Part shown: positions 53,782 through 54,950 of the stretch, piece after piece | Layout of the letters: the number at the start of each line of letters is the position of its first letter | Numbering within the stretch: position 1 is the stretch's first letter | DNA from: an uncultured Clostridia bacterium | GTDB taxonomy: Bacteria; Bacillota; Clostridia; Christensenellales; UBA1242 | Reading direction: 5' to 3' | Assembly (NCBI GenBank): GCA_934778205.1 | Contig: CAKVOD010000001.1 | Coordinates: 126,769 to 190,768 of the forward strand | Length of the DNA stretch: 64,000 nucleotides | Notes under the pieces: model-generated | The model's database searches: none | What the model was told of the DNA's origin: nothing | What the model saw: only the letters and a program-made list of their open reading frames with translations | Made by a program: the position numbers and the translations under genes

Positions 53782-54170
53782 TAGTGGCAGAGGCCACTGC
53801 TGGCGGGGGGAGCCCCGCTGCTACAGATTTGAGTTCCTACAAGCAATTTACTTGTGCGGACGGCAAACCCACACACTTTCTACTCACTCTTATTCTCGGT
53901 GGGTGGCAGAGGCCACTGCTGCAGATTTGAGTTTCTACGCTTTAGTTACTTGCGCGGACGGCATACCGTTACACTGCTTAGTCTTTTTTGTACTCGACGG
54001 GGAAAGCACCGTTGCTGTGGGTACTGTCATTAAGTCGAAATTGTTTTTTACAAAATCTTAAGTATGTGCTCTTGCAAAAGTTTATGTTTTACTGGAAAGC
54101 CCTCTGCTGCGGTTATTACTATTACAAATGAGACGCTTGGTACAAACTCTATATTCTTATTACTTTCCAC
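53782..54170 (+). repeat. Family-A array (4-5 units, plus orientation) upstream of the AT-rich core
   Basis: H1 GTGGC-AGAG-GCCAC occurs at 53784-53797 and 53903-53916. Other heads are CGGGG-GGAG-CCCCG, CGGGG-AAAG-CACCG and CTGG-AAAG-CCCT. Preceded by a sigma-A-like promoter (53699-53726). Confidence 0.8.
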
Positions 54171-54229
54171 ATTGTTGGTATTCATACTATTAGTGCTCTA
54201 AGTTCTTAGTATTACTTTTATTACTTTAT

Positions 54230-54700
54230 ATATGTACTTGCTATATTATAAATACTTAAAATATAATCACCTAATATATTGTAAGTACTTACACATAAGT
54301 ATATAATATATCATAAGTACTTAAATTATTAATACTTACTATATAATTAGTACTTAAATTATTAGTACTCACTATATAGTCTGTATTTAAATTAAAAAAA
54401 AACTTTCTATGTAAAAAGTACAAAATTTAATAAGTACATTATATATATTAAGAGTTTATATTAAAAGTACTATTAAGTTATTAAGTACATATATAATAAT
54501 TTCTTTCTATATTGTCCGTACTTATTTATTAGTACTTTCTATATTGTCCGTACTTATATATAAATTTTTTTATTTTATTAATTTTATTTATACTAATTAT
54601 TATTATTACTAAATTAATAATTAGGGTATACATATAAATATTTTCTATATATATAGTACTTATAATCACGTGCACGCTAACTAAATATTAAGTACTAAAC
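54230..54700. repeat. AT-rich core with eight exact AGTACT palindromes plus about six GTAC-containing variants, and an internal 22-bp direct repeat
   Basis: AGTACT occurs at 54284, 54316, 54349, 54364, 54466, 54531, 54655 and 54691. TTTCTATATTGTCCGTACTTAT is repeated at about 54503 and 54536. Confidence 0.8.
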
Positions 54701-54735
54701 ATATAATAAATGCTACCCCCAAAAAAAAATAAAAT

Positions 54736-54950
54736 TTGTAGTAGTGGGCTATCGCACCGAGAATAAGAGTGAGTAGAAATTGTGTGGGTTTGCCGTCCGC
54801 GCAAGAAACTAAAGCGTAGGAACTCAAATCTGTAGCAGTGGCCTTTGCCACCCGTCGAGAACAAAAGTGGGGGAGAAAGAACATTGGCTCGCCGTCCGCG
54901 CAAGTAACTAAAGTGTAGGAACAGTACCTGTAGCAGCGGGGCTATCCCCG
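54736..54950 (-). repeat. Family-A array (~2.5 units, minus orientation) abutting the dnaA promoter region
   Basis: 54757-54800 is the reverse complement of 53856-53899 with one mismatch. The head AGCGGGG-CTAT-CCCCGCT lies at about 54928-54950. Confidence 0.8.

Follow-up and report, generated by a model that had tools for sequence, protein, structure and literature searches.

A variable, repeat-rich block with facing repeat arrays between two promoters upstream of dnaA in an uncultured Clostridia bacterium

The stretch of DNA analyzed in the present study (64 kb; hereafter, the window) is the chromosomal origin region of an uncultured Clostridia bacterium. Two arrays of a dispersed intergenic repeat, designated family A, face each other across an AT-rich core in this region. 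A preliminary description correctly placed this segment immediately upstream of dnaA and proposed that it is invertible or prone to form a cruciform; the results obtained supported neither proposal. We consider it likely that positions 53784-54951 are a hypervariable, dispensable spacer between an AT palindrome with its distal promoter and the proximal dnaA promoter, and that this spacer is tolerated repetitive DNA. The coordinates of the features are summarized in Table 1.

The spacer probably has two layers. The older layer would be the AT-rich core, in which the palindrome TAAGTACTTA is tandemly repeated with a 17/34-bp unit; this layer is common to the sister clade and was probably lost from the sister species S2. 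The younger layer would comprise two arrays of a ~98-nt unit similar to repetitive extragenic palindromic (REP) elements, which probably colonized the two edges of the core, one in each orientation. The inverted repeat would then be a by-product of two arrays of the same family facing each other. Occasional non-crossover gene conversion probably keeps the arrays locally similar, and the gain and loss of units remodels them. We infer no programmed function for the block. At most, the hairpin arrays may stabilize or block transcripts, in a 3′-end role resembling that of REP elements, insulating the core from the distal promoter.

The variable block in strains and sister species

To recover contigs of the same species, exact protein matches to DnaA and to close variants of it were looked up. 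Apart from the window, nine such contigs extend as far as the core, and a tenth (L160) reaches the right array only. Four haplotypes were distinguished: A (the window, L082, and L083), B (L081 and L084), C (L159), and D (L165-L167). The sister species S2 (L162-L164) and S3 (L161, L168, and L085, the last of which extends only 1.36 kb upstream) were also compared. The dnaA tree has the topology ((window species, S2), S3), with the loci L086 and L090 outside. The assemblies show the majority orientation only.

In S2, the palindrome and the proximal -35 element are only 13 bp apart (...ATAAATTCTA AGCGTTTTCATAC TTGACTTAT...), and 53784-54951 is, therefore, exactly the variable interval. The S2 homologue of window positions 53392-53783, which contains the DnaA boxes, the distal promoter, and the palindrome, ends 48 bp before the dnaA start codon. 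The same interval spans 956-1168 bp in the window species (1168, 1066, 1073, and 956 bp in haplotypes A-D, respectively), in which it holds the arrays and the AT-rich core. It reaches ~2.1-2.4 kb in S3 (L161 and L168), in which it is AT-rich and has no family-A unit. Since S3 has the AT-rich repeat of the core at this site without arrays, the core predates the arrays; the tree and parsimony similarly indicate that the AT spacer is ancestral and that the arrays came later. S2 has probably lost the AT spacer. The palindrome itself is present in S2 (L162), S3 (L161, L168, and L085), and all haplotypes, and it forms a hairpin in the single-strand fold. Its position in S2, 13 bp upstream of the dnaA -35 element, is like that of a putative operator, or of a putative terminator for transcription from the distal promoter.

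In each of the four haplotypes, the core aligns in the same orientation relative to dnaA, at 86-97% identity. The length of the block varies with the gain and loss of units in both arrays. The differences between haplotypes amount to 13-24% for corresponding units and 0-2% for the unique flanks. Divergence between strains is mosaic across 52689-54986 (L081, L159, and L165), which implies that recombination had its breakpoints in the arrays or close to them. Identity to the window is 98-100% to the left of 53781 and 91% in the core for haplotype B, versus 85% and 97%, respectively, for haplotype C.

Alternatively, the whole block may be a non-autonomous foldback element, similar to a miniature inverted-repeat transposable element, that was inserted between the palindrome and the dnaA promoter, with S2 representing the empty site. 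The exact filled-versus-empty comparison with S2, the inverted arrays at the termini, and the sharp divergence of the block between strains are consistent with an insertion. Moreover, 52777-53376, a stretch absent from S3, holds a second block with the AT motif together with another family-A array (array X), and a part of it (53115-53143) shows 83% complementarity with the left array in the tail of the latter (54118-54146). However, the S3 outgroup has the AT-rich repeat of the core at the same site without arrays, no target-site duplication was visible, no second copy of the block was found in the window, and the composition of the arrays differs between the two ends and between strains. We regard this origin of the block as very unlikely. 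The 12-bp direct repeat CGGTTGACTTAT/CGCTTGACTTAT was rejected as a target-site duplication; its copies are the -35 regions of the two promoters, and both are kept in S2.

Table 1. Features of the dnaN-dnaA spacer and its surroundings in the window
Feature	Coordinates	Strand	Description
Second small AT-rich block with AGTACT	52820..52950		Adjoins the dnaN promoter; 4 AGTACT in 52800-52960
Array X	53139..53377	-	Hairpins and units of family A, directly adjacent to the A-run of the unwinding module
Conserved unwinding module	53378..53444	-	DnaA box ATATCCACA (53436-53444), degenerate box TTTGCACAG, ACAATAATAATACAA trios, A-run
Distal promoter	53699..53726	+	TTGACT-16-TATAAT, 11/12 match; conserved, with homologous sequence in S2 and S3
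AT palindrome	53760..53783		TAGAATTTAT-TTTT-ATAAATTCTA; perfect; left boundary of the variable block
Left family-A array	53784..54170	+	h0 53784-53802, L1 53803-53902, L2 53903-54000, degenerate units to ~54170
AT-rich core	54171..54735		Tandem repeat carrying the palindrome TAAGTACTTA
Right family-A array	54736..54951	-	Partial hairpin, R2 54755-54853, R1 54854-54951; R1 hairpin abuts the -35 element
Proximal dnaA promoter	54952..54980	+	TTGACT-17-TATACT, TG extension; conserved in S2 and S3; right boundary
dnaA	54987..56342	+	Pfam DnaA_N, Bac_DnaA, Bac_DnaA_C
Family-A unit(s) at the dnaA stop	56339..56489	+	TGA in the stem GTGAC-AAAA-GTCAC

The facing arrays and the question of inversion

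The left array had been described as extending over 53782-54170. Positions 53784-54000, which comprise a hairpin and two full units, are well preserved, whereas 54001-54170 are degenerate. L1 and L2 were detected by nhmmer with an E value of 1e-21, and the right array, which has hairpin modules at 54951 and 54851, with E values of 1e-20 to 5e-22. The right array had been stated to end ~2 bp before the -35 element; the actual gap is 0 bp, with the array ending at 54951 and TTGACT beginning at 54952. The AT-rich tract between the arrays is real, with 14-19% GC per 100 bp over 54200-54700.

The near-identity reported for the two arrays was reproduced, with 53856-53899 matching the reverse complement of 54757-54800 at 43 of 44 positions. 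The repeat search identified inverted matches of 87 nt (53815-53901/54755-54841; 89%, 853 nt between the arms) and 112 nt (53885-53996/54758-54869; 80%, 761 nt between the arms), which are two registers offset by one repeat unit. In a third register, 53803-53967 is aligned with 54951-54787. The mosaic order was also confirmed: the right unit R2 is chimeric between the left units L2 and L1, with its 5′ half being nearest to L2 (~5 mismatches in 67) and its 3′ half to L1 (1 in 44). Because left and right units are 70-86% identical, versus 61-77% for units at other loci, the similarity between the two arrays lies above the family background.

The exchange between the arrays that had been proposed is supported by these data and by the comparison of haplotypes. 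R2 is only 76% identical overall to its haplotype B counterpart (B_R3), from which it differs by eye at ~10 of the 44 positions in the near-perfect tract, and L1 is conserved between haplotypes A and B. The near-perfect tract would thus fit gene conversion of R2 by L1. Since the longest exact inverted match is only 25, 15, 37, and 12 bp in haplotypes A-D, respectively, this tract is limited to some haplotypes. A comparison of strains had been suggested as a check for inversions or gene-conversion tracts. It revealed no inverted core in the four haplotypes; however, gene-conversion-like exchange and the gain and loss of units were both found.

A RecA-dependent crossover between the inverted arrays may occasionally invert the core, resulting in a mixed population with no regulatory purpose. 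The inverted matches are 87-166 nt long at 80-89% identity, the exact inverted runs reach 25 bp in haplotype A and 37 bp in haplotype C, and the gene-conversion-like tracts show that the arms interact. A flip would also be cheap because the core is nearly strand-symmetric; alignments to L085 are equally good in both orientations. However, a single orientation was found in all four haplotypes, and the exact inverted identity spans only 15 bp in haplotype B and 12 bp in haplotype D. Efficient RecA recombination usually needs roughly 25-70 bp, and these two haplotypes fall below this range. Furthermore, a homologue of RmuC, a family reported to limit inversions at short inverted repeats, is encoded nearby. 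We consider such flip-flop inversion to be unlikely.

A programmed inversion, in which a site-specific recombinase flips a promoter-bearing segment and controls dnaA or origin activity, is extremely unlikely. Invertons, or phase-variable invertible promoters, include fimS and hin. As in these systems, a sub-kilobase non-coding segment (~0.6-0.85 kb) next to the start of a gene has inverted repeats on both sides, and the core contains promoter-like hexamers. However, the 13 promoter-like sites in the core are not above the expectation from shuffled sequences (10.2 +/- 3.2). No recombinase and no invertase or integrase domain was found among the 38 large open reading frames (ORFs) of the window, although a recombinase encoded elsewhere could act in trans, and the assemblies show no second orientation. 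In contrast to the repeats of invertons, those described here are long, imperfect, and ordinary members of a dispersed family, and they differ strongly between strains. The conserved proximal promoter lies outside the repeats; therefore, a flip would probably not switch dnaA, and since the core is also almost strand-symmetric, it would probably change little. The block does not appear to be a switch because every strain compared has the same orientation and S2 has no block at all.

The proposal of a cruciform was not supported either. The arms are 80-89% complementary and 761-853 nt apart, and the extrusion of a cruciform from duplex DNA is implausible at this distance. Pairing of the two arrays, as a long stem enclosing the core, is predicted for a single strand only. 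It would matter only for the transcript of the distal promoter or for exposed template strands.

The AT-rich core and the unwinding module

The most AT-rich 400 bp of the window lies in the core (14.7% GC). The 33-bp core unit, ATATAAGTACTTACTATATTATAAGTACTTAAA, consists of two half-units of 16-17 bp, each with TAAGTACTTA (Tandem Repeats Finder: period 33, 4.6 copies). In S3, this repeat is present as 8-9 copies of a 34-bp unit, and the consensus units are alike across species. AGTACT occurs 8 times in the 565-bp core, versus 0.16 per kb outside the dnaN-dnaA spacer (10 in 61.7 kb). When compared with the expectation from composition, AGTACT was observed 13 times (expected, 0.78) in the spacer of the window, 23 times (0.77) in that of L168, and 14 times (0.72) in that of L161, as well as 7 times (0.31) upstream of dnaA in L085. 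The spacings of GTAC in these four loci cluster at 16-18 and 31-35 bp. No such AGTACT cluster was present at 80 other dnaA loci, at L086/L090, or in S2.

Between haplotypes A and B, the core has diverged by 8.9%, which is more than the 4.2% at the third codon positions of dnaA. Within the core, their divergence is 8.6% in the motif versus 9.0% outside it, and the number of AGTACT decreases from 8 to 4 in haplotype B. There is no sign of constraint on individual sites of the core.

Another explanation is that the core is a functional array of protein-binding or methylation-target sites, in which phased TAAGTACTTA regulates dnaA or oriC and the hairpin arrays are boundaries. The excess of AGTACT, the regular spacing of GTAC in the window, L168, L161, and L085, the similarity of the 33-34-bp consensus units across species, and the restriction of the cluster to the dnaA-upstream region of this clade among the dnaA loci examined are all consistent with such a function. 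However, no site-level purifying selection was found between strains, with half of the AGTACT being lost from the haplotype B core. Moreover, S2 has no array, tandem amplification alone can enrich a motif, and no candidate binding protein co-varies with the array. A regulatory array of this type is possible, but rather unlikely.

We similarly attach a low probability to the proposal that the core is a clade-specific, origin-associated TAAGTACTTA array with 17/34-bp phasing that serves as a loading or sequestration platform for a factor, with the family-A arrays as transcriptional boundaries. Candidates for this factor would be a DNA-binding protein that acts as a dimer and a system that depends on methylation, analogous to GATC/SeqA, either of which would control dnaA transcription or origin firing. 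A literature search for AAGTACTT as a binding site returned primers and unrelated matches only. The GATC/SeqA sites in E. coli oriC and the iterons of plasmids are origin-proximal site clusters. The core is similar to these in that its motif is short, dense, and in phase beside the initiator gene and the origin. In contrast, the core motif is palindromic instead of being a directional iteron, and the array is dispensable in a sister species.

An ORF of 168 aa (56784-57290; ~23% GC) without a Pfam match is located between dnaA and mnmE and has its own promoter (TTGACA-17-TATACT). Its homologue in S2 has 166 aa and is followed by a Fic-domain gene; S3 has no homologue. This ORF (165-168 aa) was rejected as the binding protein of the core. 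It is present in S2 and absent from S3 and, thus, does not track the core.

The core was also rejected as the DNA-unwinding element: a DnaA-box scan found no box with one mismatch or fewer in the core, a conserved module of boxes and trios lies elsewhere, and S2 has no core. This module fits the pattern reported for basal unwinding at Firmicute oriC, box-spacer-(NAN)n, with a pair of DnaA boxes and DnaA-trios (PMC8287927). The criterion applied for such an element was a DnaA box followed, no more than 16 bp on, by at least three NAN trios and an AT-rich run. In an alignment of six lineages, TATCCACA-TTTGCACAG-ACAATAATAATACAA-(AT run) was nearly invariant, outgroups at ~25-27% dnaA nucleotide divergence included. 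The dnaA-dnaN spacer of L086/L090 matches the window in the inverted orientation (L086 6849-6946 versus 53486-53390, 79%, E value 1e-17). The locus resembles the Firmicute basal unwinding system in its module, which is conserved across the clade. The AT-rich core is distinct from this module; it has no DnaA box, is located ~730 bp from the module, and is absent in S2.

The variable block begins ~340 bp to the right of the module, and array X abuts the module on its left. In the S3 locus L161, from which 52777-53376 is absent together with array X and the second AT-rich block, the module directly adjoins the dnaN promoter region. A perfect DnaA box is also present inside this stretch, at 53047. 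A second cluster, of six perfect DnaA boxes, is located at 50833-51146, in the interval that separates rpmH from the 3′ end of dnaN. Each side of dnaN, therefore, has some of the DnaA boxes of the origin.

Several points weigh against regarding the block as a dispensable spacer of tolerated repeats. TAAGTACTTA and its 17/34-bp phasing persist across species at ~19-22% dnaA nucleotide divergence, and AGTACT is 17-30-fold over-represented for the base composition, which argues that the core is more than junk. The block is a sharp-edged local hot spot of divergence, which a separately exchanged cassette would also produce. Inversion at a low frequency is possible and was unobserved, and assemblies collapse minority orientations. 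The loss of the AT spacer from S2 was deduced by parsimony from a tree of one gene. Lastly, the picture of family A and of any associated transposase comes from 64 kb of the genome.

Family A and the origin region

In the family-A unit of ~98 nt, a GC stem of 5-6 bp closes a 4-nt loop (as in GCGGGG-ATAG-CCCCGC and GTGGC-AGAG-GCCAC); the other parts are the tail TGCTRCAG and a body with the conserved blocks TTCCTAC, GGACGGCA, and CTTTCTA. The stems vary between copies, yet stay complementary (GCGGGG/CCCCGC, GTGGC/GCCAC, GTGAC/GTCAC, and GCGGC/GCCGC). The tail of the hairpin follows the pattern YTRYRG. Twelve hairpin modules are perfect, with 5-6-bp stems and 4-nt loops, and their tails, ~3 nt from the stem, are CTGTAG (five), CTGCAG (five), and CCACAG (two). 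A profile of the unit (hidden Markov model, HMM) detected 18 copies at 10 intergenic places in the window. One further locus, the 11th (47651-47839; 79-nt period), has the hairpin module only. The tail-plus-stem motif gave 16 matches versus 0.39 expected. RNAalifold on 14 units found only the first hairpin to be consistent and no fold of the whole unit, in an alignment that mis-registers the two stem types.

Five of the 11 loci have their first hairpin no more than 10 nt from the stop codon of a co-oriented gene, and at a sixth, after jag, it lies ~55 nt downstream of the stop. The TGA of spo0A directly precedes a family-A stem (35672-35690), the TAG of dnaN is the loop of a hairpin (51565-51578), the TGA of dnaA is part of a stem (56339-56352), and at mnmE a hairpin begins 2 nt past the TAG (58807-58825). 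The loci without this association are array X and the left and right arrays in the dnaN-dnaA spacer, as well as 47050-47170. The placement of the hairpins at stop codons suggests a possible 3′-end RNA role or the targeting of gene ends.

No family-A match was found in S3, L086/L090, 80 GTDB dnaA loci, or a metagenome scan, and 7 kb of S2 contain one copy. On this sampling, family A appears to be abundant only in the window species, with one copy in S2. The pattern GGACGGCRNACN7CTTTCTA gave 68 single matches in metagenomes from unrelated environments. These match the pattern region only under the HMM and were rejected as chance matches.

BOX elements of pneumococci are modular repeats of the form boxA-boxB(n)-boxC. 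Similar to these, family A is a modular Firmicute intergenic repeat with variable tandem internal units and predicted stem-loops. However, the two have no sequence similarity, and family A has neither distinct terminal A and C modules nor an Rfam match. Searches of Rfam gave nothing relevant in the whole window at the gathering threshold or in 52600-55100 at a permissive threshold.

Family A resembles GTAG-type REP elements in form. In the accounts cited, these are small GC hairpins with a GTAG tail that are extragenic, reiterated in tandem with flanking DNA, and overlap stop codons (PMC3733652, PMC2817692). In common with REP elements and bacterial interspersed mosaic elements, family A forms small GC-rich stem-loops and has a conserved tail that resembles GTAG (when read on the other strand, CTGTAG/CTGCAG). 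Its units are extragenic, present in a high copy number, and arranged in head-to-tail clusters that are repeated together with the DNA beside them. Stop codons are overlapped or provided by the termini of family A, and its copy number differs between strains. In contrast, its stems are 5-6 bp with a 4-nt loop, while REP palindromes are cited as 20-40 bp. Its tail is also not strictly GTAG (GTAG in 5, GCAG in 5, and GTGG in 2 of the 12 modules, ~3 nt off the stem), and most units carry a conserved body of ~75 nt with a period of ~98 nt. No match to Y1_Tnp, the domain of REP-associated tyrosine transposases (RAYTs), was found among the 38 large ORFs of the window. The host of family A is a Clostridia lineage, whereas one of these two papers places GTAG repeats in at least Proteobacteria, Cyanobacteria, Chloroflexi, and the Planctomycetes-Verrucomicrobia-Chlamydiae (PVC) group, and does not contain the word Firmicutes.

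Regarding the setting of the block, the GC skew of the window is negative up to ~54 kb and positive from 56 kb, and its cumulative minimum lies at 54-56 kb. The minus strand carries, in order, jag, yidC, rnpA, rpmH, and dnaN, and the plus strand dnaA, mnmE, mnmG, parA, and parB. The spacer between dnaN and dnaA is 2298 bp, and the facing arrays and the core lie in its right half. A GTDB genome scan with DnaA found no close relative, with the best match being 58% identical; the nearest proteins (51-58%) come from Clostridia/Christensenella-like metagenome-assembled genomes. The RmuC-family gene (44251-45582) and spo0A (34901-35674) are both near the origin.

The gene order in L086 (5001-8172) and L090 (3949-7227) is dnaA, dnaN, rpmH, rnpA, yidC, and jag, all on the plus strand. 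In the window (51570-56342), S2, and S3, the genes from jag to dnaN are on the minus strand, followed by dnaA and mnmE on the plus strand. These orders are consistent with dnaA having been flipped relative to the spacer and dnaN in the clade of the window versus L086/L090. The pair of genes upstream of dnaA in L086 (HI0933-like and FAD-dependent) is located at 37768-40610 in the window. Family-A arrays were rejected as the cause of the flip; S3 has the flipped order and no family A.

A non-coding region of ordinary GC content (47190-47500) lies between a family-A unit (47050-47170, plus strand) and the array with the 79-nt period (47651-47839, minus strand). It contains long-range complementarity of agtcatttcgaccgaa with ttcggtcgaaatgac and of gcggagaaatctcccggaagg with ccttccgggagatttctccgc, and had no Rfam match at the gathering threshold. 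This region is a candidate for a structured RNA or foldback element.

Control of dnaA by a flippable segment would have been a remarkable finding; however, the evidence argues against it. The present study indicates instead that, at an origin, over 1 kb of rapidly evolving repetitive DNA can be tolerated between the promoters of the initiator gene, and S2 shows that the state without the block is viable in nature. Facing arrays of a dispersed repeat represent a class of false positives, of which this block is a clear case, for pipelines that use inverted repeats to call invertons. The present study also defined a REP-like family in a phylum in which such elements are little described, located a conserved unwinding module, and flagged a clade-specific palindromic repeat at the origin for a possible role in replication control. 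The possible origin-related function of the TAAGTACTTA array is the most interesting point; the segment otherwise belongs to the natural history of an uncultured Clostridia lineage.

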